Below, piece by piece: positions 1 to 20,956 of a DNA stretch of 21,601 nucleotides. Source of the stretch: Candidatus Altiarchaeota archaeon (lineage in GTDB: Archaea > Altiarchaeota > Altiarchaeia > IMC4 > QMZM01); contig JAWAEV010000009.1 in assembly GCA_038891095.1 (NCBI GenBank), positions 1 through 21,601 of the forward strand. The letters are read 5' to 3'. The translations under genes and the position numbers were made by a program. How positions within the stretch are numbered: the first letter of the stretch is position 1; each line of letters begins with the position of its first letter. The notes beneath the pieces were generated by a model, which had not been told where the DNA came from, ran no database searches, and saw nothing but the letters and a program-made list of their open reading frames with translations.

Positions 1-3000
1 GAAGGAAAGGAGAGAACCTTTTGAGATATCACTAAAAGAATTAGGAGAGAGACTTGCATTTGATGTTCATAAGGAGATAGAAGCTATAAGGGATAAAGAT
101 AGGAAAGAGTTCCCTCGTGCAACCCCAAGATTGATAAGTATAATTCAAATTGGTGTAGGTAAAGGTAGAAGTTTAAATGAGCTGTCTGAAATTTCAGATG
201 AGTATGTTGAAATTTTAGGAATAGGTGCAAGGAGATCTGAGGAATGGAAAACAAAAACTGTAGAGAGATCCTATATGCATTACCCAAGAGGAAATTGGCA
301 GGAACCATATGAGGTGAAATATACCGAATATCTATTGAATTGGAAAGTAGCAAGTATAAGAAAACTCATAAAAAAGGTATCTCATAGCCATTATGACTTT
401 GTTCTTGCAGATTTGTCGGATTATCCAGCTTCGTTAATAAATGAAATTTTGAATACTCTACATGTTATTGCCAAGCCACATGCTAAAATAGTAGTTGCAT
501 TATCAGAAAATGCATTAAAAGCAATTAAAGTTGATTCTGAAAAAATTAGATTAATAAGGCAAATTAGCAGTGGTGAAGGGATAATTGCACTACATTTTGA
601 AAATAGTAATAGAGCAGATTATAGAAACTCTGCAGCTAGGATCTATAAAGGAGTTAGAAATAATTTTGGTAGAAAACATGGTCAGATATATGAATACATT
701 GCAACACCGCTAAGTGAAGTTCAAGAAAGACTTGGATTTAATTTGTTAGAGGAGTTAAACTCATTAATTAATGATGCAGAAAAAACTGGAAGAGAAAAAC
801 CAAAAATATTGGATGTTGGTGCTGGCAATGGCGTAGCAATAATACAACTTGCTGAGAAGTCAAATTATAGAGCAGAATATTATGCTCTTGACATAAAAAG
901 ATGGCCAGGATGGACCAACACTAAAATTCATTGGAAAATAGGTCCTATGGAAGAACTTTCAAGGCTTTATAAAGATATAAAATTTGATTTGATCTACTCA
1001 CATTTTGGAATTTACAATAGTATTGATATAGAAAAAACAATTCAAGAGACTTATAAAATTTTGAATTATGGCGGAACACTTGTGACAAATTTAAAATTAA
1101 GTGGCTCAATATTTTCTGAAAAAATTTCTGAAATTAAAGAACTTCTCGGACCATTTGCAGAAGAGGCAGAGATTGAATATAAGCAAGTTAACGGAAGAGA
1201 TATTATAACAATAAAAAAGCCATATGAAAATCTAAAAAATTCATTTTCTGCTATCTATCAAAATGAATTTAAAGACGAGCAACTATCCACAAAAAAACTT
1301 GAGATAAAACTTAAACATAAGGAAAGACAAATTGCAGAACTAAATGAAAAATTAAGGGAAATTTCTAACATTAGACGCACCAAGCATGATACCCTAATCC
1401 CAAGACAAAAAAGAAGTTTGCAGAGATCTATAGGAAAGCTCAAAGAAGAAATTAACGAAATTAAACTAAAAATTTTAGAGATTAAAACTTCTGAGGTAAT
1501 TGCTTCTCATGAAGAGGTTAATTACAATGAAATTATCCATAAATCTGCAAAATTTGTAAATTTCAATGAACTCCACACTGACATTTCTCCAAAAAGAGAA
1601 ATTGCTATGAGTATGGCATTGTTTAGAGAATTAGGTTTTACTGATATTGCAATGGAAATTTTCAGAAAGGATGCTAATACTCAGAAGTTATTGGATGTAT
1701 ATTTTGCAGAAGAGAATCCCAATAAAATTAATGAATATGAATTTGAGATACTAAGAAAAATTTATGAGAAACTTGATGCTAGATGGTTAAAAGAAAATCC
1801 ATCTTTAGCTTATGAATATCTTGCTGTTGTTAAAGCTGCTAAAGAAAATGGCATAATGATAAGAGCAATTGATGTTCCTGCTGGTTATGAAAACTTAGAC
1901 AGAGATAAATTTATGGCTGACACTATAATTGAAATACTCCAAGAAGATGAAAGCAGAAGAGTTTTAGGATTGACAGGATATGCACATGGACATGAAAAAA
2001 GCTATTACTTTTATCCCGATTTTGAATTTGGAGAGCGTGCTTCTAGCTTTAGGATTAGTATGAGAACTTTACTTAATAAGAGAGGCATAGAGAGCGTATA
2101 CATTGATATAATGGAGAATGAGCCTAAATTAAACATACCTACTAATGCACTTGGCTTAGGAGAGTTATATGCTCCAAGCTCTTATTATAGATACCTCCTA
2201 TATCAGGCAGTTCTTAAAGCTAAATTGCAAAATAAAAGGTTTATGATTAATATGATAAATTTTCCAGAACTAAATTTGCAATGGGTTGTTTTCAGTCCAA
2301 GAGAATTTGTAGAGAGATTAACATTCCAATATGTTCCTAAAATTGAAAAATTAGAAGGAACCGGATTTAACTCATTTAGCTCAATTCACAAAGAGGATGA
2401 CAAAGAAAGAATATTTGAAACTCCTGATGGGACAAAGGTTTCAGAGAAAAATTATCAAGATGAAGAAGAAACCCCTAAAGAAAGAACAAAAAGATTAAGA
2501 GAGATAGCAAAATATTATTATCAGAGTCTGCTTAAGACACATACCGTTGTTCCAATAGGAAGTGTTTTTCATGGTGGTAGAGCAAGGGATAGCTTAGCTA
2601 TTTTTGAATATCCTGGAAGTACAAAAAAGGAAAGTGATATTGATATAATAACTATCTCTTATGAGGATGCAAAAACAGAAAGAGTTGATATAACCGACGC
2701 TACTGGTGTTGAGATAACAATTATAAAATTTCCATTTAGTGAGTTCTATAAAATTTTTTCACCAAAAGTTGGATATATAACAGAACTCCCTCTGGCCATA
2801 AACCCTATTTTTATCCAAGGGAAAAATTCTGATCTCGTGAAAAAAATTTTAGAAGAGGCGAATATACAAAATACTAAGATAGCTTTAGAGAGATATCTTT
2901 ATGAAAAAAATTCAAGAGAGGTTAGACCAATTGATTTAACAGACATAATAATGCGAAAACTTATGCCTTTGTCTTTTAGAATAATTTCTCCTGAATCTTA

Positions 3001-3754
3001 CTCAAGAGTAAATTTTATTAGGCAAATTTCAAACAATGTGGAGAATGCTCTTGAGAATGGCAATCTTGCTAAGAGAATTGGCAACAAGCCAGAAAAATTT
3101 ACTTCTTTATCAAAATTTATAATAAATGAAAACATTAAACCAAAACCTCATAGATTTCAACAACTGAAAAGCGATTATAATTTATTCTTTGGAAGAGGTT
3201 GGTTTTGGGATGGTAGAGCATTAAAGATAATCAGGATTGCCTTTAAACTAAATAAAAAATTTTATTGGATTAAAATTCCATTTAAAATTTCAAAGAAATT
3301 TGCCATATATGGAATAAAAATCATAAAATCAAAATTTACTAAATTCAAGAAGGAATTTAAGAATAGAATAAAAACTAAAAAAGCTCAGCAAATAAATCGT
3401 GGTTTAGAAATTTCACAAGAAAGTATAGAAATAGATTACCATCCAAGAAAGAATTCCTTAACTCTCTACTTTAATGTAGAAAATGTCGGCGAAAGTACAA
3501 TAAAGAAATTTTCAGCTGAGATAAGTTTTTCAGGCACAAAATATTCAACTATAATTGAAATTGAAAATATAAATTTAAAGAGGGGGCAATTTGCATTCAT
3601 AAATATTGAAATAGAAGACGAATTTCTGATCAAAAGATTTAGGGGCGGGGACTTTATTTCAGGAAGCATAAAAATAGTTTGTTTTGAGGATAAATATGGC
3701 AAAGTAGAAGACGCGAATGAACAGAGTTTTACTCGTTTTCCAGAAAGCATTTAA
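1..3754 (+). CDS. 3' part of a large multidomain protein (pseudo-MTase, class I SAM MTase, coiled coil, TIKI/ChaN/EreA-like domain, nucleotidyltransferase, Ig/CARDB-like C-terminus); 5' truncated by the window
   Basis: The frame is open from base 2 (KERREPFEISLKELGERLAF...) with no stop before the TTG at 131, so the true start is probably upstream. Motifs: ILDVGAGNG (806-832); NELH...IAME...RDKFMA...GYAH (1565-1987); FHGGRAR...SDIDI (2567-2647); LTLYFNVENVG near the C-terminus. Confidence 0.85.
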   Translation, partial: KERREPFEISLKELGERLAFDVHKEIEAIRDKDRKEFPRATPRLISIIQIGVGKGRSLNELSEISDEYVEILGIGARRSEEWKTKTVERSYMHYPRGNWQEPYEVKYTEYLLNWKVASIRKLIKKVSHSHYDFVLADLSDYPASLINEILNTLHVIAKPHAKIVVALSENALKAIKVDSEKIRLIRQISSGEGIIALHFENSNRADYRNSAARIYKGVRNNFGRKHGQIYEYIATPLSEVQERLGFNLLEELNSLINDAEKTGREKPKILDVGAGNGVAIIQLAEKSNYRAEYYALDIKRWPGWTNTKIHWKIGPMEELSRLYKDIKFDLIYSHFGIYNSIDIEKTIQETYKILNYGGTLVTNLKLSGSIFSEKISEIKELLGPFAEEAEIEYKQVNGRDIITIKKPYENLKNSFSAIYQNEFKDEQLSTKKLEIKLKHKERQIAELNEKLREISNIRRTKHDTLIPRQKRSLQRSIGKLKEEINEIKLKILEIKTSEVIASHEEVNYNEIIHKSAKFVNFNELHTDISPKREIAMSMALFRELGFTDIAMEIFRKDANTQKLLDVYFAEENPNKINEYEFEILRKIYEKLDARWLKENPSLAYEYLAVVKAAKENGIMIRAIDVPAGYENLDRDKFMADTIIEILQEDESRRVLGLTGYAHGHEKSYYFYPDFEFGERASSFRISMRTLLNKRGIESVYIDIMENEPKLNIPTNALGLGELYAPSSYYRYLLYQAVLKAKLQNKRFMINMINFPELNLQWVVFSPREFVERLTFQYVPKIEKLEGTGFNSFSSIHKEDDKERIFETPDGTKVSEKNYQDEEETPKERTKRLREIAKYYYQSLLKTHTVVPIGSVFHGGRARDSLAIFEYPGSTKKESDIDIITISYEDAKTERVDITDATGVEITIIKFPFSEFYKIFSPKVGYITELPLAINPIFIQGKNSDLVKKILEEANIQNTKIALERYLYEKNSREVRPIDLTDIIMRKLMPLSFRIISPESYSRVNFIRQISNNVENALENGNLAKRIGNKPEKFTSLSKFIINENIKPKPHRFQQLKSDYNLFFGRGWFWDGRALKIIRIAFKLNKKFYWIKIPFKISKKFAIYGIKIIKSKFTKFKKEFKNRIKTKKAQQINRGLEISQESIEIDYHPRKNSLTLYFNVENVGESTIKKFSAEISFSGTKYSTIIEIENINLKRGQFAFINIEIEDEFLIKRFRGGDFISGSIKIVCFEDKYGKVEDANEQSFTRFPESI

Positions 3755-4395
3755 ATTTTTATGGTTTCGCTAACATTCATAATTTTTACTTTTGTCTCTA
3801 AGTTTAGCATTTCAACTTTCTTTTTGAAATTTTCAGCATCTTCCAAAGAACCAACAATTTTAGCATAATGCATTGGCACAACAATTTCTGGTTTTATAAT
3901 TTTTACAGCTTCTGCTGCCTCTGAGAAATTCATCGTGTAAGTCCCGCCAATAGGGAGCAATGCTAAATTTATTTTCTTTTCAGCAAGTTCATTCATCTCT
4001 GGGATTAGGTCAGTATCGCCAGCATGATAAACCTTTTTGTTTTCTGCTTCAACAATGAAGCCAACTCCAAAATTTTTTTTATGGAATGGTTTTCTCATAT
4101 TGTAAGCAGGAACTGCACTTATTTTTATATCTCCTAAAGAAAGAGTTTCTCCTTCCTTTATAGATTTCAAATTTCCAGAAAGTTTTTTCGAAGTAATTTC
4201 ATTCGCAATAATTACTGTTTCTTTTGTTTTAATTTTCTTTATGGCTTCATTATCACAATGGTCATAATGCTCATGCGTCACAAGAATAATATCTGCTGTT
4301 TTAAAGTCAAGTGGCAATTCATAAGGATCTAAAAATATTCTCTTCCCAAGAGTTTCTATTTCAAATGCTGCATGTCCATGCCATCTAACTTCCAT
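3751..4395 (-). CDS. MBL-fold metallo-hydrolase (UPF0173/UlaG-like)
   Basis: WHGHAAF, DPY, THEHYDH, YHAGDT, LPIGG and PMHY motifs. Confidence 0.9.
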   Translation of the reverse strand: MEVRWHGHAAFEIETLGKRIFLDPYELPLDFKTADIILVTHEHYDHCDNEAIKKIKTKETVIIANEITSKKLSGNLKSIKEGETLSLGDIKISAVPAYNMRKPFHKKNFGVGFIVEAENKKVYHAGDTDLIPEMNELAEKKINLALLPIGGTYTMNFSEAAEAVKIIKPEIVVPMHYAKIVGSLEDAENFKKKVEMLNLETKVKIMNVSETIKI

Positions 4396-4452
4396 TTTTA
4401 TTTGTTTTTACTTTTTGTATGATATTAATAATAAGTCTAAATTTATATAAAA

Positions 4453-7281
4453 ATGTCTTTTTATGAAGTTTCTCTTTTCAAAGAAAAAAATTTTATCAGA
4501 AATAAATGCAATAAATGTGGAAGATTTTTCTGGAGTTTATCAGAGAAAGAAATTTGTGGTGAACCGCCTTGTAGTGAGTACTCCTTTATAGGGCACTCAG
4601 TAATGAAAAAAAAGTTAAATCTTCATGACATGAGAGAAGAATTTTTAAATTTTTTTGAGAAAAGAAATCACAAAAGGATTGCTCGATATCCTGTTGTTGC
4701 CCGTTGGCGGGATGACATTTTTTTCACAATTGCATCAATTTCATGTTTTCAGCCATGGGTTTTAAATAGAACTATTGAACCACCTGCAAACCCTCTTGTT
4801 ATGAGTCAGCCGTCTCTTAGGTTTAATGATATTGATAATGTAGGAAAAACAGGAAGACATTTGACACTTTTTGAAATGATGGCTCATCATGCTTTCAACA
4901 CAAAAGAAAATTTTATATATTTTAATGACAAAACAGTTGAGTTATGTCATGAATTTCTCTGTTCCTTAGGAATTCCTGAAGAAGATATTAACTATATGGA
5001 ATCAGAGTGGTCTGGTGGTGGTAATTCTGGACCTTGTTTCGAGGTAATAATTCGCGGCTTAGAAGTTGCAACTCTTGTATTTATGGTCTATGAAGATTTA
5101 CCAACTGGAAAAAAAGAGCTTGATATGCAAGTTGTTGATACAGGTTATGGGCTTGAGAGATTCACATGGCTCTCACTTGCATTACCAAATGTCTATGAGT
5201 CAATCTTTAAGGAAGTTTTAGAGAAACTAAAAAAAGAGGCAAAAATTTCAACTGATGAAAAAATTTTAGCAGAATACTCAAAATTAGCAGGGACAATGGA
5301 TATTGGTAGTAATCTAAAGCTAAAGGAACTTAGAAGAATAGCTGCAGAAAGACTTAAAATTTCTGTTGAAGAACTCACAAGCTATATAAACCCATTAGAA
5401 AATTTGTATGCAATTTGTGATCACACAAGAGCATTAGTTTTCATGCTAAATGATGGAATTATACCTTCAAATGTCAAGGGAGGATATTTCGCTAGGTTGC
5501 TTGCTAGAAGAACTTTAAGATCTATTAAATTTCTAAATCTAAAAATTTCCTTAGGAGAAATCTTAGAATTGCAAATAGAGTCTCTTAAGAGTAACTTCCC
5601 TGTTTTTAAAGAAAATAAAGATGATATACTAAGAATAATTTCTGTTGAAGAAAAAAAATATAGGAACACAGTTAATAAGGGAAGAGCAATTGTCTGTGAA
5701 TTAGAAAAAAAATGTGAAAAGGAAAATAGAAAAATAAATATTGAAGATCTTATAAAGCTTTATGATACATATGGCTTAACCCCTGAATTAGTTAAGGATT
5801 TTCTAAATAAATCTGATTTGGAAATTCCAGATGATTTTTATATACAAGTTTCAAAAAAACATGAAAAACCAGAGGAAATCGAATTTAAAGAGAAAAAGTT
5901 ACCTTTGCCAGATGAAATTTTACGAATAGCAGAAACTAAGTTAGGTTTTTATGAAGATGTAGAAGTTAGAAAATTCAAAGCAAAAGTTTTGGCGAAATTT
6001 GACAATTTTGTAATTTTAGATAAAACCTACTTCTATGCTGAAAGTGGCGGTCAAGAGGCAGATCATGGAAAAATTTCTGGTTTAGAGGTAATAGACACGA
6101 AAAAAGAGGGAAATATAATTTTACATAAAATTAAGGCAGGTATAGAAAAGCTTAAAGTAGGACAAGAAGTTGAATGCGAAATAAATTGGCAGAGAAGATT
6201 GCAATTGATGCAACATCATACTTCTGCACATATAATTAATGGTGCTGCAAGAAGAGTTTTAGGTAAACATGTATTTCAAGCAGGAGCTCATAAAAGTGAG
6301 AAGTTAGGTAGATTAGATATAACACACTATGAAAGTCTTAGCGAAGAGGAGTTGAAAAAAATTGAGGAACTTGCAAACAAAGTTGTAAATGAAAAGAGAG
6401 AAATTGAAATAAAATTTATGCCAAGAAATGAAGCTGAAGAGAAATTTGGTTTTAATATATATCAAGGTGGTGCAGTTCCTGGAAGGATAATAAGAGTTGT
6501 CAATATAAAAGATTGGGATGTTGAGGCTTGTGGCGGAACTCATTTTAATAACACAGGGAAAGTTGGCAAAATAAAATTGCTTAGAGCTAAAAGAATTCAA
6601 GATGGTGTCGTGAGATTAGAATTTAAAAGCGGTAGAGCACTTAGCAAGTATAGCGATGAAATTTCAGAAATTTGTAAAGAAATTTCAACTGAAGAAATTT
6701 CTGAGGAAGAATTAAAGAAAATTGCTAATGTTTTTTCTGTTTCAATAGATAAAGTTTCAAAAACAATAGAAAGATTCCAATATGAGCTGATAAGTAGAGA
6801 AAAAGTTATAGAAATGCTAAAAAATGAAATAATTTCACATGGAGGCAAAATTACTGAAAGAAAAATACAAAAAGAAATTTGTGTTCGCTCTTCAGAGGAT
6901 GCAGAAAAATTATTTAAAGAGTGGAAATCTCAATCAAAGTATATTGAAAAATTAAGTGAACAGTTAGTTGGAATTTTAAATGTTGAATTAAAAAAATACA
7001 GAGGCAAAACTATAAAGAAATTAATATCTGGTCTAGAGACAAATTATCTAATGAAAATTGCAAAGTCTTTGCCTGAGGTGGAATGTTTAATAATGATTAG
7101 TAATACCGAAGATAAAGTTAATTTCGTTGTGAGTTCAAATAGCAAGAAATTGAATGCACTTGAAATTGCAAAAGATATAGCAAAGAAATTAAATGGTGGC
7201 TGCCACGGAAATGAAAATTTCGCTGTTGGTGGCGGTTATTCTAAGGATGCAAAAAAAATTTTTGAATCAATAAAAATATGA
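4453..7281 (+). CDS. alaS: Alanine--tRNA ligase, archaeal type
   Basis: N-terminal CxxC...C..PC Zn motif, RYPVVARWRDD, VGKTGRHLTLFEMMAHH, VDTGYGLER, editing motifs HHTSAH and ACGGTH, C-terminal GGCHG C-Ala domain. Confidence 0.97.
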   Translation: MSFYEVSLFKEKNFIRNKCNKCGRFFWSLSEKEICGEPPCSEYSFIGHSVMKKKLNLHDMREEFLNFFEKRNHKRIARYPVVARWRDDIFFTIASISCFQPWVLNRTIEPPANPLVMSQPSLRFNDIDNVGKTGRHLTLFEMMAHHAFNTKENFIYFNDKTVELCHEFLCSLGIPEEDINYMESEWSGGGNSGPCFEVIIRGLEVATLVFMVYEDLPTGKKELDMQVVDTGYGLERFTWLSLALPNVYESIFKEVLEKLKKEAKISTDEKILAEYSKLAGTMDIGSNLKLKELRRIAAERLKISVEELTSYINPLENLYAICDHTRALVFMLNDGIIPSNVKGGYFARLLARRTLRSIKFLNLKISLGEILELQIESLKSNFPVFKENKDDILRIISVEEKKYRNTVNKGRAIVCELEKKCEKENRKINIEDLIKLYDTYGLTPELVKDFLNKSDLEIPDDFYIQVSKKHEKPEEIEFKEKKLPLPDEILRIAETKLGFYEDVEVRKFKAKVLAKFDNFVILDKTYFYAESGGQEADHGKISGLEVIDTKKEGNIILHKIKAGIEKLKVGQEVECEINWQRRLQLMQHHTSAHIINGAARRVLGKHVFQAGAHKSEKLGRLDITHYESLSEEELKKIEELANKVVNEKREIEIKFMPRNEAEEKFGFNIYQGGAVPGRIIRVVNIKDWDVEACGGTHFNNTGKVGKIKLLRAKRIQDGVVRLEFKSGRALSKYSDEISEICKEISTEEISEEELKKIANVFSVSIDKVSKTIERFQYELISREKVIEMLKNEIISHGGKITERKIQKEICVRSSEDAEKLFKEWKSQSKYIEKLSEQLVGILNVELKKYRGKTIKKLISGLETNYLMKIAKSLPEVECLIMISNTEDKVNFVVSSNSKKLNALEIAKDIAKKLNGGCHGNENFAVGGGYSKDAKKIFESIKI

Positions 7282-10851: not shown

Positions 10852-11406
10852 ATGACAATAACTTACGCTGATGTTCAGAGAATTTATAGGTTAGAGAAGA
10901 ATTCAACAATATTAGAAAAACTTCCTGATAATTTTTACATAGAAGTTAACTTTCTCCTATCACAAGTTGACAGTGAGCACAAAAAATACATAGAAAAAAT
11001 TGTTTCTGAAATTTATGAAAAGAGAAAGCAGAAAATACTTTTGCAAGCTATTCGTGGCGGTGATGTTCCAGTAAATGCAACATCTAAAGAAAAGCAATTA
11101 TATTTGGAAATTTTGGAAAAAATTGAGAATTATAGAAAAGCTATTTTTTCTGATACTCCAGAAGTTGTATTAGAAGAGAAAAAAGAAGAGCCTAAAGAGA
11201 ATGAAAATAGAAAAGAAGAAGTAAAAGAACTAAACGAAGAGAAAAAAAATAGCGATTTAGTTAAGGTGAGAATTTTAGCACCACTGCCAGCAATTGCAGG
11301 CTATAATTCCTTAAGTTACGGACCCTTTAGTGAAAATGATGAAGTTTTACTTCCAAAAAAAATTGCAAAAATTTTAATTGAAAGAGGAGTGGCAGTTTCT
11401 ATATAG
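10852..11406 (+). CDS. DNA replication complex GINS family protein (Gins51/Gins15 type)
   Basis: Helical A domain (EK...LEKLPDNFY, EKRKQKIL), charged linker, C-terminal B domain VRIL..LP.I.G....YGPF...D.V.LP...A..LI.RG.A. Confidence 0.85.
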   Translation: MTITYADVQRIYRLEKNSTILEKLPDNFYIEVNFLLSQVDSEHKKYIEKIVSEIYEKRKQKILLQAIRGGDVPVNATSKEKQLYLEILEKIENYRKAIFSDTPEVVLEEKKEEPKENENRKEEVKELNEEKKNSDLVKVRILAPLPAIAGYNSLSYGPFSENDEVLLPKKIAKILIERGVAVSI

Positions 11407-12490
11407 ATAGCTTATGATAAATTTTCATTAACTTTTTTATTGTATTTTCAATTGAATGCTCCTTTACATATTCAATACAATTTTTCGAAAGTGTTTTTCT
11501 ATGCTCATATGCCTTTTCAATTAATTCTGCCAAAGTTTTAACATCTCCTTGCTCATAAAGATAGCCAGTTTTTCCATCTTTGACAGTATCTTTAAGTGCA
11601 AATGCATTTGCTCCTATGACAGGAACTCCACAAGCCATTGCTTCTAATGCAACTAAACCTTGAGTTTCTGCAGTTGATGGAAATATAAACAAATCCAATG
11701 TTGAGTAAAATCCAAGTAGATCATCTCTATTTAAAAATCCAAGAAATTTAACATTCTTCTTACCTTTTGCCAATTTTTTATAATAACTTTCTGCTGGGCC
11801 TAAACCTGCAATCAAAATTTCTCCATCAAAATTTTCTGCTATAGAAATTAAATCTTCAAGATGTTTCTCATATCCAAATCTGCCACAAAAGCCAATGAAT
11901 TTTTTTCCATGAATACCAAACTTCCTTTTGAAATCCTTTGGATTTATCTTCCTAAAAAATTTTAAGTCTATGCCATTTGAAAGAACTATAACATCATTAA
12001 CACCTTTCTCAATTAATCTCTTTTTGATAACATTTGATGGAGCAGTCACAAGGTCAAAACTATTAAGAAGTTTTTTTTCATAGTAGTTATAAACCCGTAT
12101 TAATAATCTCTGCAACTTCTCTCTTCGAGTTACATAGTTTATGTATTGATCTGCTGGTGTATGATAAGTTAAAATTTTTGGTAATGAAAATTTTTTCGAA
12201 ATGTATAAACCTGCCCATGCCATTGTAAATAATCCATGCACATGGACAACATCTAAAAATCCGGCTTTTTTTGAAATTCTTGTTGGAAATGCAACTCTAT
12301 AGCCACGATAAAATTTAAACTCAATTGAATGAAAAGGAAATTCATTCTTTTCAGCTTTATAGGAACTTTTCGGATAATATACAAATATCTCTTCTCCAAT
12401 TTCTGATAGCTTGTCTTTCCATGTTTTTATTGTGTATGTAACTCCATTAACCTGTGGAAAATATGTATCTGTAAAAAAACCAATTTTCAT
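11399..12490 (-). CDS. GT4 glycosyltransferase, monoglycosyl-lipid synthase-like (MGS/LafA-like)
   Basis: The start is more likely ATG 12490 (MKIGFFTDTYFPQVNGV) than 12535. TYHT, SNGID, GRFGYEK, ETQGLVALEAMACG. Confidence 0.85.
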   Translation of the reverse strand: MKIGFFTDTYFPQVNGVTYTIKTWKDKLSEIGEEIFVYYPKSSYKAEKNEFPFHSIEFKFYRGYRVAFPTRISKKAGFLDVVHVHGLFTMAWAGLYISKKFSLPKILTYHTPADQYINYVTRREKLQRLLIRVYNYYEKKLLNSFDLVTAPSNVIKKRLIEKGVNDVIVLSNGIDLKFFRKINPKDFKRKFGIHGKKFIGFCGRFGYEKHLEDLISIAENFDGEILIAGLGPAESYYKKLAKGKKNVKFLGFLNRDDLLGFYSTLDLFIFPSTAETQGLVALEAMACGVPVIGANAFALKDTVKDGKTGYLYEQGDVKTLAELIEKAYEHRKTLSKNCIEYVKEHSIENTIKKLMKIYHKLSI

Positions 12491-18838: not shown

Positions 18839-20956
18839 TTATTTTTTCTCTTTCTCAAGCAATTCTCTAAAAATTCCTATCGAACCAGTAACATTGCCCT
18901 TGCTATCTCTTAAAACACTTATAGATAAGACAACATCTATTAGCTTACCATTTCCATTGATCATTTTTGTCTGCATACGATGTCTTATACCCTTTTTCCT
19001 CAAATTTTGAGCTCTTATTTTTTTCCACTCTTCAATTGGGTATAGAGATCTTACAGGCTTTAGATATAGTTGTTCTCTATTCATGGAAAGAAGGTCTTCA
19101 GTGTATTTATTCCAATATATAATTCTTTCATTTTTGTCTGCAAATGTTATTGCAACATAGGAATTATCAAATATTGTTCTATACCTCTCCTCGGATTCCT
19201 TCAGAGCATCCTCTAATCTCTTCTTTTCAGTTATATCCTCCGTAATACAATCAAAATATTTTGGTTTTCCATTTTCATCATAAACAACAACAGCATTCTC
19301 TCTAACAATTATTGGTGTGCCATCCTTTTTCTTTATCTTTAAAATTTCATCCTTCAAATAACCTTGTTTTAGTATTTTTTCATTAAATTTTTTTCTATCC
19401 TTTGGATTTTGATAAATATCACAGACATTAAGCTTTAAAAGTTCTTCTTTATTGGTGTATCCTAACATTCTTACAAATGCTGAGTTGACATCTATAAATC
19501 TTCCTTTTTCACCAGGAGTAACTCTATTGACACCTGCATTTACATTCTCAAATATTGTTCTATACCTTTCTTCAGATTCTTTCAGTGCTCTCTCTAATTC
19601 TTTTATTTCTGTGATATCATCAAACATACCATCATAATACCTTATATTTCCATTTTCATCACGAACTGCAATTGCAGTTTCTCTAACCCAAAATGAAGTG
19701 CCATCTTTTCTTTTATACTCAAATTCTTCATTTTTTATATACCCTTTTTCAGCAATCTTTTTTTCAAAAATTTCTCTATCCTTCGGATTTTTATAGTAGT
19801 CAGCAACATTAATTTTTGAAATTTCCTCTTTATCCTTAAACCCAAACATTTTCAATAGATAAGAATTTGCTTCTATAACTTTACCATTTTTTCCAGGAGT
19901 AGTTCGATAAATACCAACATTAACATTTTCAAAAATTTCTTTGTATCTACTTCTAGTTTCTTCTAATTTTTTCTCTAACTCCCTTATTTCAGTGATGTCC
20001 TCAATGATACCATCATAATACTTTATATTTCCATTTTCATCACGAACAGCACTTGCAGTTTCTCTAACAATGACTATAGAGCCATCTTTTCTTTTATATC
20101 TAGCTTCCCAATTTTTCACAAAACCCTTTTCTTTCATAATACTCTCAAATTCCTCTTTCTCTTTTATGTCAACATATGTATCCCTAACAAAAGTGTTTAA
20201 AGCTTCGTCTTTGCTTTTATAATTGAAAATTTTGACATATGCAGGATTTACATCTATGTGCCTTCCATCTATTCCAGGAGTTACACGATAAATCCCAACA
20301 TTCACATTGTTAAAAATTTCTTTATACCTCTCTTCTGAAGATTTCAGAGCGTTCTCTAGCATTCTTTTCTCTGTTATGCTTCTTCTTAAGAGTAAAACAC
20401 CAATTACATCGCCTTTTTTGTCTTTAATTACCGAACATTGGACTTCATAATAATGAAAATTCCCATTAAAGTCTTTATAGCTACCCTCCCTTATCTCAGT
20501 TCCTCCTGTTTTTAAAGTCTCAATAACAGCATAATAATCTGGAAAGAAAATTTTATCTTTCCGAAATATCTCCTCACAGCTTCTACCTTTAATTTTAGGC
20601 AAATAGCCCTTTTGGTTTCTTATCTGTTTTTTGTATCTCTCATTTATGTAGAGAAATTTTTTATCTTTATCAAGAATTGCAACTCCTGCACCAATTATAT
20701 CCAAAATAGTCTTTAGTCTGTAGTTAGATTCTTCCTCTCTTGCTAATAATTCCAAGATATGTGGTTTATGTGAATGCCAAAGTTTTGTCATTCCAGCATT
20801 TTTAAAATCCACCAATCCTTTTAGCCTCATTACTTCAAGATACTTGAGAAGTGTTGGTCTTGAGACATCTATCGCGTTGGAAATCTCAACTGCTGATGCG
20901 CCAAATTCCTTCTTTTCTAAAAAATCCAAAATTTTTGATTCTATGTCCTCTGCCAT
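18839..20956 (-). CDS. One-component regulator: N-terminal winged HTH plus five PAS/PAC domains, no kinase
   Basis: ASAVEISNAIDVSRPTLLKYLEVM...GLV.FK.AG..KLW (wHTH); repeated SEERY..IF.N...RDENG....G..EDITE PAS-PAC units. Confidence 0.9.
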   Translation of the reverse strand: MAEDIESKILDFLEKKEFGASAVEISNAIDVSRPTLLKYLEVMRLKGLVDFKNAGMTKLWHSHKPHILELLAREEESNYRLKTILDIIGAGVAILDKDKKFLYINERYKKQIRNQKGYLPKIKGRSCEEIFRKDKIFFPDYYAVIETLKTGGTEIREGSYKDFNGNFHYYEVQCSVIKDKKGDVIGVLLLRRSITEKRMLENALKSSEERYKEIFNNVNVGIYRVTPGIDGRHIDVNPAYVKIFNYKSKDEALNTFVRDTYVDIKEKEEFESIMKEKGFVKNWEARYKRKDGSIVIVRETASAVRDENGNIKYYDGIIEDITEIRELEKKLEETRSRYKEIFENVNVGIYRTTPGKNGKVIEANSYLLKMFGFKDKEEISKINVADYYKNPKDREIFEKKIAEKGYIKNEEFEYKRKDGTSFWVRETAIAVRDENGNIRYYDGMFDDITEIKELERALKESEERYRTIFENVNAGVNRVTPGEKGRFIDVNSAFVRMLGYTNKEELLKLNVCDIYQNPKDRKKFNEKILKQGYLKDEILKIKKKDGTPIIVRENAVVVYDENGKPKYFDCITEDITEKKRLEDALKESEERYRTIFDNSYVAITFADKNERIIYWNKYTEDLLSMNREQLYLKPVRSLYPIEEWKKIRAQNLRKKGIRHRMQTKMINGNGKLIDVVLSISVLRDSKGNVTGSIGIFRELLEKEKK
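19181..20340 (-). repeat. Intragenic tandem repeat of 381-nt (127-codon) PAS units
   Basis: The Tyr codons of the RY motif sit at 20324, 19943, 19562 and 19181, exactly 381 apart; 19626-19687 and 20007-20068 match at 59/62 nt. Confidence 0.9.

Follow-up and report, generated by a model that had tools for sequence, protein, structure and literature searches.

The left end of a 21,601-nucleotide (nt) stretch of DNA from Candidatus Altiarchaeota archaeon (GenBank assembly GCA_038891095.1) carries the C-terminal part, approximately one fifth, of a giant modular gene, which is among the largest archaeal genes known and whose product is, at about an even chance in our estimate, a polyvalent polyprotein that is processed by cutting at short linkers between its modules. 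This stretch, referred to here as the window, is the entire contig JAWAEV010000009.1 (C9) of a genome of 958,546 bases in 15 contigs, with a completeness of 93.65% and a contamination of 0.48%. The gene is 19-21 kb long, chromosomal, and belongs to a hot-spring archaeon. In the window it is visible as an open reading frame (ORF) of 1250 codons on the forward strand (2..3754) that has no stop upstream as far as base 2, and because the window begins at base 1 of the contig, the ORF is truncated by the assembly and not by biology. The original prediction, made from the letters of the window, had described it as a frame of at least 1250 amino acids (aa), open to the window edge, in which two methyltransferase (MTase) folds, a helical hairpin or coiled coil, a TIKI/ChaN-like domain, a nucleotidyltransferase (NTase) of the pol-beta type, a polybasic stretch and an Ig-like terminus follow one another, and the results given below bear out this description.

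The upstream extent of the gene is provided by a relative. A HMMER search with the window ORF among 1.84 billion representative proteins returned 113 proteins at E <= 1e-3, one of which, P0002, is 7011 aa long. It is the protein MEM2918020.1 of a metagenome-assembled genome (MAG) at NCBI, annotated as 'GNAT family N-acetyltransferase [Candidatus Altiarchaeota archaeon]' and encoded on a contig of 85,158 bases. In tblastn comparisons, residues 5046-5857 of P0002 match nt 2-2437 of the window with 95.6% identity and residues 6581-7011 match nt 2459-3751 with 98.1% identity, whereas residues 662-940 give an internal match of 47.6% to the TIKI region of the window. The remainder of the window genome holds no further tblastn match to P0002, residues 1-5045 of which are not in the assembly, and by subtraction the gene of the window strain would encode about 6300 aa.

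The product of this gene is built of modules separated by a pentapeptide, N.F[SGA][SA]. P0002 contains 17 copies of it, when 0.31 would be expected (mean of 2000 shuffles, with a maximum of 4), and a relaxed form of the motif gives 19 sites, which divide the protein into 20 modules of 79-739 aa (M1 to M20). The strict motif reaches a density of 2.4 per 1000 aa in P0002; in the window genome, 767 ORFs with a total of 275,435 aa contain 20 copies, or 0.073 per 1000 aa, which is about 33-fold lower. The 12 residues on each side of the sites have a low hydrophobicity (0.239, against 0.338 +/- 0.02 for random positions in 2000 draws of 19 sites, the minimum being 0.27), and no strong match of three family profiles spans a motif. 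These profile matches occupy residues 26-305 of the 312 aa of M3, 203-411 and 429-628 of the 637 aa of M17, 77-358 of the 377 aa of M18 and 10-278 of the 435 aa of M20, and end 7-19 aa ahead of the next motif in M3, M17 and M18. The copies of the motif sit, then, in polar linkers at module borders. Two of them fall within the window, where they are encoded as AAT TCA TTT TCT GCT (motif 1) and AAC TCA TTT AGC TCA (motif 2); since both the Asn and the Ser codons differ (TCT versus AGC for Ser), the motif is conserved at the peptide level.

The most plausible candidate for a cutting enzyme lies between these two copies of the motif, in a hydrolase domain of the TIKI superfamily. The window sequence alone scores 23.9 bits against PF04187, under the Pfam cut-off of 27.7, but this family is matched by 10 of the 10 homologues, stand-alone or fused, tested for the TIKI domain (E values of 4e-05 to 5.7e-19; 15 proteins were scanned), and profile matches in the PDB point in the same direction. 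An alignment of 30 sequences (A2) contains invariant H, E, Q, G and H residues and a nearly invariant E, which correspond to H525, E552, Q561, G659, H662 and E523 of the window ORF. The 2His/2Glu site (E523, H525, E552 and H662) is therefore kept in the window, where R634 also falls on the consensus R of A2. Compared with the PDB, the TIKI profile finds RRSP best (6a8j at 6.4e-17 and 5w6l at 7.4e-17), followed by ChaN (2g5g, 6e-07), HopBA1 (5t09, 8.2e-06) and the Pasteurella toxin (5e-03). The GE-H, E and G--H positions of the profile align with GEVH, LEH and GKAH of RRSP, and the R of the profile with that of MYRAG. RRSP is a metal-independent TIKI endopeptidase that needs Glu-3900, His-3902, Glu-3930, His-4030 and Arg-4001 and that cleaves Ras between Tyr-32 and Asp-33 (PMC6254334; this and the other papers given by PMC number are cited from the parts of their text that were available). 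The window module is a member of the TIKI superfamily with a catalytic site that is intact as predicted from these alignments.

The arrangement of modules and linkers is kept when a whole module is gained or lost. The tblastn blocks shared with P0002 stop at nt 2437 and restart at nt 2459 of the window, and between them P0002 carries a block of 723 aa that is in frame and brings exactly one linker motif. Evidence for this variation comes from contigs of four runs of one hot-springs study. In the run that is the likely source of the window (X1), a separately assembled contig of 19,983 bases covers positions 827-4500 without a single difference and bridges the 2437/2459 junction. The ORF is not an assembly chimera, which the original prediction had named as one of the ways in which it could be refuted. 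In another run (X2), a contig of 3386 bases tracks the window to 2437 and continues with 2132 bases unlike it, a second contig of 18,938 bases picks up the window at 2458, and the differences shown match the substitutions of P0002. A contig of a further run (X4) also departs from the window at 2437. Variants with and without the 723-aa cassette coexist, then, in the runs of one study, so that the shuffled domain content that the original prediction had proposed to look for among relatives is present between co-occurring strains, which differ by one whole cassette. Codon changes between the strains amount to 19 non-synonymous and 12 synonymous ones (36 of at least 86 variant positions). Nine changed codons, seven of them non-synonymous, are clustered at positions 281-331 of the window (codons 94-110), within the first MTase fold. 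No RNA dataset is among the listed runs that hold the window stretch.

The module and linker grammar, which is kept through the insertion or deletion of the cassette, together with a motif conserved at the peptide level and an intact TIKI site, argues for a polyprotein that is cut at its linkers, a reading to which, as said above, we give about equal chances of being right or wrong. According to it, the giant product would be made as a single chain of about 20 modules, composed of helix-turn-helix (HTH) arrays, GNAT acetyltransferases, two tandem MTase folds, two or three TIKI hydrolases and the NTase. Cutting at the N-x-F-[S/G/A]-[S/A] linkers would release the DNA-binding proteins and the modifying ones as individual units. 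The chain's own TIKI-type endopeptidase modules, in which the 2His/2Glu site is intact, are the best candidates for doing so, and the freed pieces may act jointly on DNA, chromatin or proteins in a setting of conflict or host manipulation. The Phe at a fixed position of the motif would suit a protease that cuts after an aromatic residue, as RRSP does, although this is an analogy and not evidence. A bolder version, which we regard as possible but rather doubtful, is that of a virus-like polyprotein strategy in a cellular genome, in which about 20 proteins, HTH regulators together with acetyl-, methyl- and nucleotidyl-transferases, would be freed by TIKI cuts at N-x-F/S-S (the slash marking the cut) and the chain might be passed unfolded into another cell, making it the first archaeal counterpart of MARTX and polyvalent proteins.

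The composition of the whole chain is known from P0002, whose Pfam content is taken here from a precomputed list of 26 families, the only Pfam information for its first 5045 aa. The list includes four methyltransferase families, PF04187, four families (PF00583, PF13673, PF13302 and PF13508) which we take to be GNAT acetyltransferases, and 17 others that are presumably of HTH type, five of them named in the scans of this analysis and the rest assigned by their accession numbers. Most of the giant protein consists of HTH DNA-binding modules. Several modules are repeated within the chain: the TIKI modules M3 and M18 share 49% identity, a domain common to M4 and the cassette (M19) 47%, and a weaker match of 32% over 81 aa, read as GNAT-like, joins M1 to M19, while M8, M11, M12 and M13, read as HTH modules, match one another and M16 contains a weak third TIKI-like stretch detected by profile. 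Residues 445-472 of P0002 form an H-x-H...S-x-x-D stretch that is JAMM/MPN+-like by pattern only, and the precomputed list has no JAB family.

P0002 contains a single cysteine in 7011 residues (position 6988, in the terminal beta domain), when the median of the genome is 1.09% (390 ORFs of at least 300 aa, 24 of which are at or below 0.1%). The opposite extreme is found in the same genome, in two ORFs of 1782 aa with 201 Cys (on contig C1) and of 1128 aa with 94 Cys (on C2). The maximum Kyte-Doolittle mean over 19 residues is 1.38, and no transmembrane or signal peptide-like stretch is predicted in the whole 7011 aa of P0002. The low hydropathy and the sole Cys argue that the giant is not a surface protein, and the near-absence of Cys and of membrane segments, together with modules of cytoplasmic type, suggests that the chain acts in a cytoplasm, be it that of its own cell or of another one, and may have to travel unfolded.

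The second of the two tandem MTase folds is the better preserved one. It scores above the Pfam cut-offs in four families, Methyltransf_31, _23, _25 and _11 (34.9, 30.6, 29.0 and 28.3 bits, for cut-offs of 27, 27, 27 and 21.2), and a hidden Markov model of 30 fold-2 sequences (A3) finds the matching MTase module of P0002 with a domain E value of 7e-50. The first fold has no Pfam match and was recognised by hhalign against the A3 profile, with a probability of 97.3% and an E value of 2.1e-11 over 154 columns; scores of 0.92-0.94 to MTase clusters in the Atlas features are a lead only. Its motif I reads IGVGKG; Q takes the place of the acidic residue ahead of GxGxG, and G that of the Asp of motif II. 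Fold 1 is a divergent tandem duplicate of fold 2 that probably cannot bind S-adenosylmethionine (SAM) and is likely inactive. Between the MTase folds and the TIKI domain, a helical hairpin or coiled coil (aa 425-500) is read from its two stretches rich in K, E, I and L on either side of a Pro-containing turn.

The module downstream of the strain-variable junction has the fold of a pol-beta-type NTase. Such enzymes are defined by the motifs hG[GS] and [DE]x[DE] and by a third carboxylate, and in the window module GS occupies aa 853-854 and D-I-D aa 879-881. At one position, 7 of 7 homologues have E where the window NTase has K. The NTase homologues belong to no Pfam family and the family profile has no match among PDB sequences, the nearest structural matches in a viral library being phage and giant-virus NTases. 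A stand-alone homologue in another archaeal MAG has purA, purB, a HAD hydrolase and an AIR-synthase-like gene as its neighbours. In the same MAG, a Piwi-domain (Argonaute-like) gene (73-1746) and an IS240-type transposase (11116-12000) lie within 6 kb of this homologue. The polybasic stretch that follows the NTase (28.6% K+R over aa 1052-1135) is present in stand-alone NTase homologues too, and the all-beta domain that closes the protein is probably an Ig-like (or CARDB-like) sandwich; in the Atlas features its C-terminal 126 aa reach a best score of 0.88 without assignment to a family.

Relatives of the giant protein are scarce. A word-indexed protein search with the window protein found only itself among 8000 scored candidates, and the same search with residues 1-5000 of P0002 compared 3660 candidates of 3856-12,270 aa, of which P0002 itself was the sole match, and 7999 shorter candidates, of which none reached E <= 1e-06, so that neither protein collection searched yielded another giant relative. 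The window protein has no match in 40 related genomes of 60-97% completeness, and scans of genomes, metagenomes and viral contigs with back-translated patterns gave 24, 85 and 8 pattern matches, respectively, none of them a relative; with the patterns used, none of 2.9 million viral contigs carries one. Whole-ORF phmmer found nothing among PDB sequences and, among PHROGs, only methyltransferases were matched. Of 60 other genomes of the phylum, 5 contain matches to the TIKI profile, which lie in open frames 277-755 aa long (two of these proteins being 428 aa long, with a signal-like start, and 561 aa long). Within the limits of these searches, the giant family was found in this one lineage and study only. 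No published account of the gene was found, although the supplementary lists of PMC5512222 may hold archaeal cases.

The positions of all these elements and of the adjacent gene are collected in the following table.

Features of the giant gene and of its neighbour in the window (positions in nt of the window, residues counted in the window ORF; MBL, metallo-beta-lactamase; pLDDT, predicted local distance difference test)
Feature	Residues (aa)	Positions	Strand	Evidence or remark
C-terminal 1250 aa (stop included) of giant modular gene		2..3754	+	5' end cut by contig start
SAM-methyltransferase fold 1	6-191	17..574	+	hhalign against fold-2 profile A3
SAM-methyltransferase fold 2, class I	207-406	620..1219	+	Pfam; GxGxG motif VGAGNG intact
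Linker motif 1, N-S-F-S-A, MTase / coiled-coil-TIKI border	413-417	1238..1252	+	
Helical hairpin or coiled coil	425-500	1274..1501	+	Read from sequence only
TIKI-superfamily hydrolase domain	492-773	1475..2320	+	A2 alignment, PDB profile matches
Linker motif 2, N-S-F-S-S, TIKI / NTase border	790-794	2369..2383	+	
Strain-variable junction, VSEKNYQ	813-819	2438..2458	+	723-aa cassette inserted here in sister variant
Pol-beta-type nucleotidyltransferase and winged-helix-like helical domain	824-1051	2471..3154	+	
Basic amphipathic tail, 28.6% K+R	1052-1135	3155..3406	+	pLDDT low in both models
C-terminal all-beta domain	1133-1250	3398..3751	+	Contains the protein's sole cysteine
MBL-fold hydrolase, convergent neighbour (context only)		3751..4395	-	Pfam Lactamase_B_3, 3.9e-35

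The composition of the giant gene is native to its genome. G+C is 0.29-0.33 across the ORF and 0.31 in the whole genome, the ORF ranks at the 31st percentile among 249 genome windows of equal size in its tetranucleotide distance to the genome, and G+C at third codon positions is 0.209 in the ORF and 0.200 in the neighbouring alanyl-tRNA synthetase (AlaRS) gene. The next gene, for an MBL-fold hydrolase, is convergent and overlaps the 3' end of the ORF by 4 nt. Downstream of it come genes for AlaRS, a polyprenyl synthase, an NTP-transferase, a cupin-type glucose-6-phosphate isomerase and an MscS-like channel, and further on for GINS51, two GT4 glycosyltransferases, Memo, ribosomal protein P1, a SIS protein and a four-PAS protein. 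This readable downstream flank of 18 kb contains no mobility gene, integrase, virion, conjugation or secretion gene, and the window has no tRNA and no direct repeats of note to mark an insertion border. The original prediction had anticipated most of this context, namely a base composition like that of the flanks, the lack of an adjacent mobility gene and of an obvious immunity gene (none was found) and the convergent hydrolase.

Some other features of the window and of the genome were recorded along the way. The four-PAS protein (18839-20956, minus strand) is 705 aa long and has at least four PAS domains and, according to Pfam, no output domain. Word depth jumps at 4201-4350 in 4 of 4 runs (to 101.8 in X1), and positions 4256-4296, in the 5' part of the MBL hydrolase gene, are the end point of many short foreign contigs; 4201-4350 is probably a short stretch common to other organisms in the samples. 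Contigs C9 and C6 probably adjoin, the last 106 bases of C9 (21496-21601) being identical to the first 106 of C6, and an overlap of 118 bases joins contigs C7 and C13. Long open frames at three other contig ends (of 1661 aa on C6, 682 aa on C13 and 398 aa on C2) were considered as the missing part of the giant gene and rejected, as tblastn with the 7011-aa protein matches C9 only and no other contig end of the genome overlaps the start of C9. Other very long ORFs of the genome are one of 2080 aa on C4 and the 1661-aa frame that runs off the end of C6. The two ends of contig C12 (15,722 bases) share 127 bases, which would suit a circle; the idea of a circular element was dropped, since it carries genes for RtcB, TYW3, dCTP deaminase, stomatin/NfeD and BatA/VWA proteins, and C12 is more likely a repeat-bounded piece of the chromosome than a plasmid or virus.

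Several points weigh against a processed polyprotein that serves in conflict. Cleavage, the protease, the site of action and the target are all matters that we infer, and the pentapeptide, instead of being a cutting site, may serve as a spacer that gives flexibility or as a motif for docking. The motif was, moreover, defined after reading the sequence, so that its enrichment is somewhat inflated, although the margin is large. The TIKI family also includes esterases (Ere) and the haem-binding ChaN, which makes a peptidase activity of the window module uncertain. Some modules may be inactive, as indicated by the loss of the SAM-binding acidic residues from MTase fold 1 and by the change from E to K in the NTase, and the 19 non-synonymous and 12 synonymous codon changes fit relaxed or diversifying evolution, although they are too incomplete to weigh. 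The PADLOC defence models have no match, and the housekeeping flank and native composition are as compatible with a resident function in the cell as with one in conflict.

Such a resident function is the basis of another explanation, somewhat unlikely in our opinion, in which the chain is never processed and acts as a nucleoid or chromatin hub, tethering transferases and peptidases to DNA through its HTH modules, with the pentapeptide as a spacer or docking site. It would agree with a chromosomal gene of native composition next to housekeeping genes, with a precomputed Pfam list dominated by HTH families, with the lack of signal peptide-like and transmembrane stretches and with the position of the stand-alone NTase homologue among purine-biosynthesis genes in another archaeal MAG. 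A core cellular function is, however, expected to be conserved, whereas the window protein is unmatched in the 40 related genomes searched and the TIKI matches of the phylum (5 of 60 other genomes) are in open frames of no more than 755 aa. Neither is it easily reconciled with a cassette of 723 aa that is dispensable between co-occurring strains, with a five-residue motif at 17-19 module borders, which exceeds what a spacer needs, or with the near-total loss of Cys over about 20 unrelated modules, unusual for resident cytoplasmic enzymes of this genome. The gene might also be cargo of an invasive element such as a virus or plasmid, either integrated or wrongly assigned to this genome, whose product is packaged or transferred and processed in the recipient, an explanation that overlaps with the processed polyprotein and that we consider unlikely. 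The multi-enzyme make-up with an in-built peptidase would suit it, as in the polyvalent proteins described in the available text of PMC5512222, and so would the cassette-level variation between strains, the unassembled upstream side of the gene and the phage and giant-virus NTases that are closest to the NTase module in the viral library. Nevertheless, the 3' end of the gene overlaps a housekeeping gene, followed by those of AlaRS, GINS and ribosomal protein P1, its composition matches the genome, the viral contigs (with the patterns used) and PHROGs offered nothing beyond the methyltransferases, and the MPTase, ArdC-N and DdrB-ParB hallmarks are not in the precomputed Pfam list, which is not exhaustive.

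Much less probable, and disfavoured, is a membrane-anchored surface or adhesion giant similar to the SPEARE proteins and acting outside the cell. An Ig-like or CARDB-like beta domain at the C-terminus, a very low Cys content and a small genome (0.96 Mb at 93.65% completeness) could be expected of such a protein, but the 7011 aa are devoid of hydrophobic segments (the 1.38 maximum over 19 residues), the content is of intracellular type (HTH, GNAT, SAM-MTase and NTase) and the domains for adhesion, proteolysis and restriction that mark SPEARE proteins are absent from the precomputed Pfam list. Least credible of all is that the gene is an assembly chimera, a collapsed repeat or a decaying pseudogene. 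The contig does break within the gene, and the cassette-free 2437/2459 junction could in principle be a collapse; against this, the X1 contig agrees with the window at every position from 827 to 4500, X2 holds the other variant on two contigs, the frame stays open for 1250 codons here and for 7011 in the relative at about 31% G+C, and 4 of 4 catalytic TIKI residues are kept.

At 7011 aa, the protein would rank among the largest of the archaea. If the motif is a cutting site, a new pair of protease and site, and polyprotein expression in a cellular genome, would be at hand, and with them a way to learn how a hot-spring archaeon with a small genome acts on DNA or chromatin, whether in its own cell or in another. 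If the chain is not processed, it would still be an unusual chromatin-tethered multi-enzyme protein of a single lineage. The presence in one chain of a conserved motif at 17-19 borders and of an intact TIKI-type site makes processing directly testable.

Viral polyproteins offer a general comparison, with many units in one frame, a short repeated consensus in which small residues come after a fixed residue, and an encoded protease. The giant, whose cleavage is a proposal, differs from them in its location on a cellular chromosome, and no viral hallmark gene was found. At the level of the single module, likeness to the RRSP/TIKI superfamily (Tiki, RRSP, HopBA1, ChaN, erythromycin esterases and TraB/PrgY) consists in profile membership and in the conserved E-x-H, E, G-x-x-H and Arg; RRSP has an N-terminal membrane-localisation lobe, which the window module lacks, having the helical hairpin in front instead. 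The SPEARE proteins of Nanohaloarchaeota, of 3315-8553 aa (the longest being the second largest archaeal protein, according to the text available of PMC6642349), resemble the giant in size class, in multi-domain make-up and in coming from an archaeon with a small genome, but they are membrane-anchored, mostly extracytoplasmic and endowed with adhesion, serine-protease and restriction domains (PMC6642349), whereas the giant is of cytoplasmic type and has no hydrophobic segment.

Bacterial polyvalent proteins and MARTX toxins are the closest parallels, both being single chains of unrelated effector domains freed by an in-built protease (PMC5512222, PMC6315884). In the polyvalent proteins of phages and conjugative elements (Iyer, Burroughs, Anantharaman and Aravind 2017, PMC5512222), unrelated enzymatic and nucleic acid-binding domains are joined in one chain, a peptidase has been proposed to free them, and the content is mosaic and fast-changing. 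Nearly all of those longer than 1000 aa are bacterial, with a paucity in archaea (PMC5512222). The giant differs in being chromosomal and of native composition and in having a peptidase of the TIKI type, not a zincin-like MPTase, and its regular linker pentapeptide is not met in the part of PMC5512222 that was available. The precomputed Pfam list of P0002 shows none of the hallmarks of the class (MPTase, ArdC-N, SNF2, DNA MTase, ParB-like and others), although many of them have no Pfam model. As neither a mobile context nor hallmark domains are established, we do not assign the giant to the class of Iyer et al.

The MARTX toxins of Vibrio and relatives are likewise very long single chains with unrelated modules in a row, and the regions between the modules are cut by the toxin's own protease (PMC6315884, in the text available). 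The comparison with MARTX in the original prediction holds in that the closest solved structure to the window TIKI module is the catalytic domain of a MARTX effector, RRSP (E 6.4e-17), and it fails for the autoprocessing protease. A cysteine protease domain is impossible in the giant, whose sole Cys (6988) lies in the terminal beta domain, no RTX family appears in the precomputed Pfam list of P0002 or in the scan of the window (the N-terminal 5045 aa being covered by the list alone), there are no type I secretion genes in the readable flank, and no eukaryotic host is implied. MARTX toxins are, in addition, bacterial and have up to five modules, when the giant is archaeal and has about 20, mostly HTH. 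Of the multi-effector or conflict protein that the original prediction had proposed, the string of unrelated modifying-enzyme modules stands, and its role as an effector or toxin cassette is still conjectural. What is new is an archaeal variant of the single-chain multi-effector theme, in which the modules are joined by a conserved linker motif.

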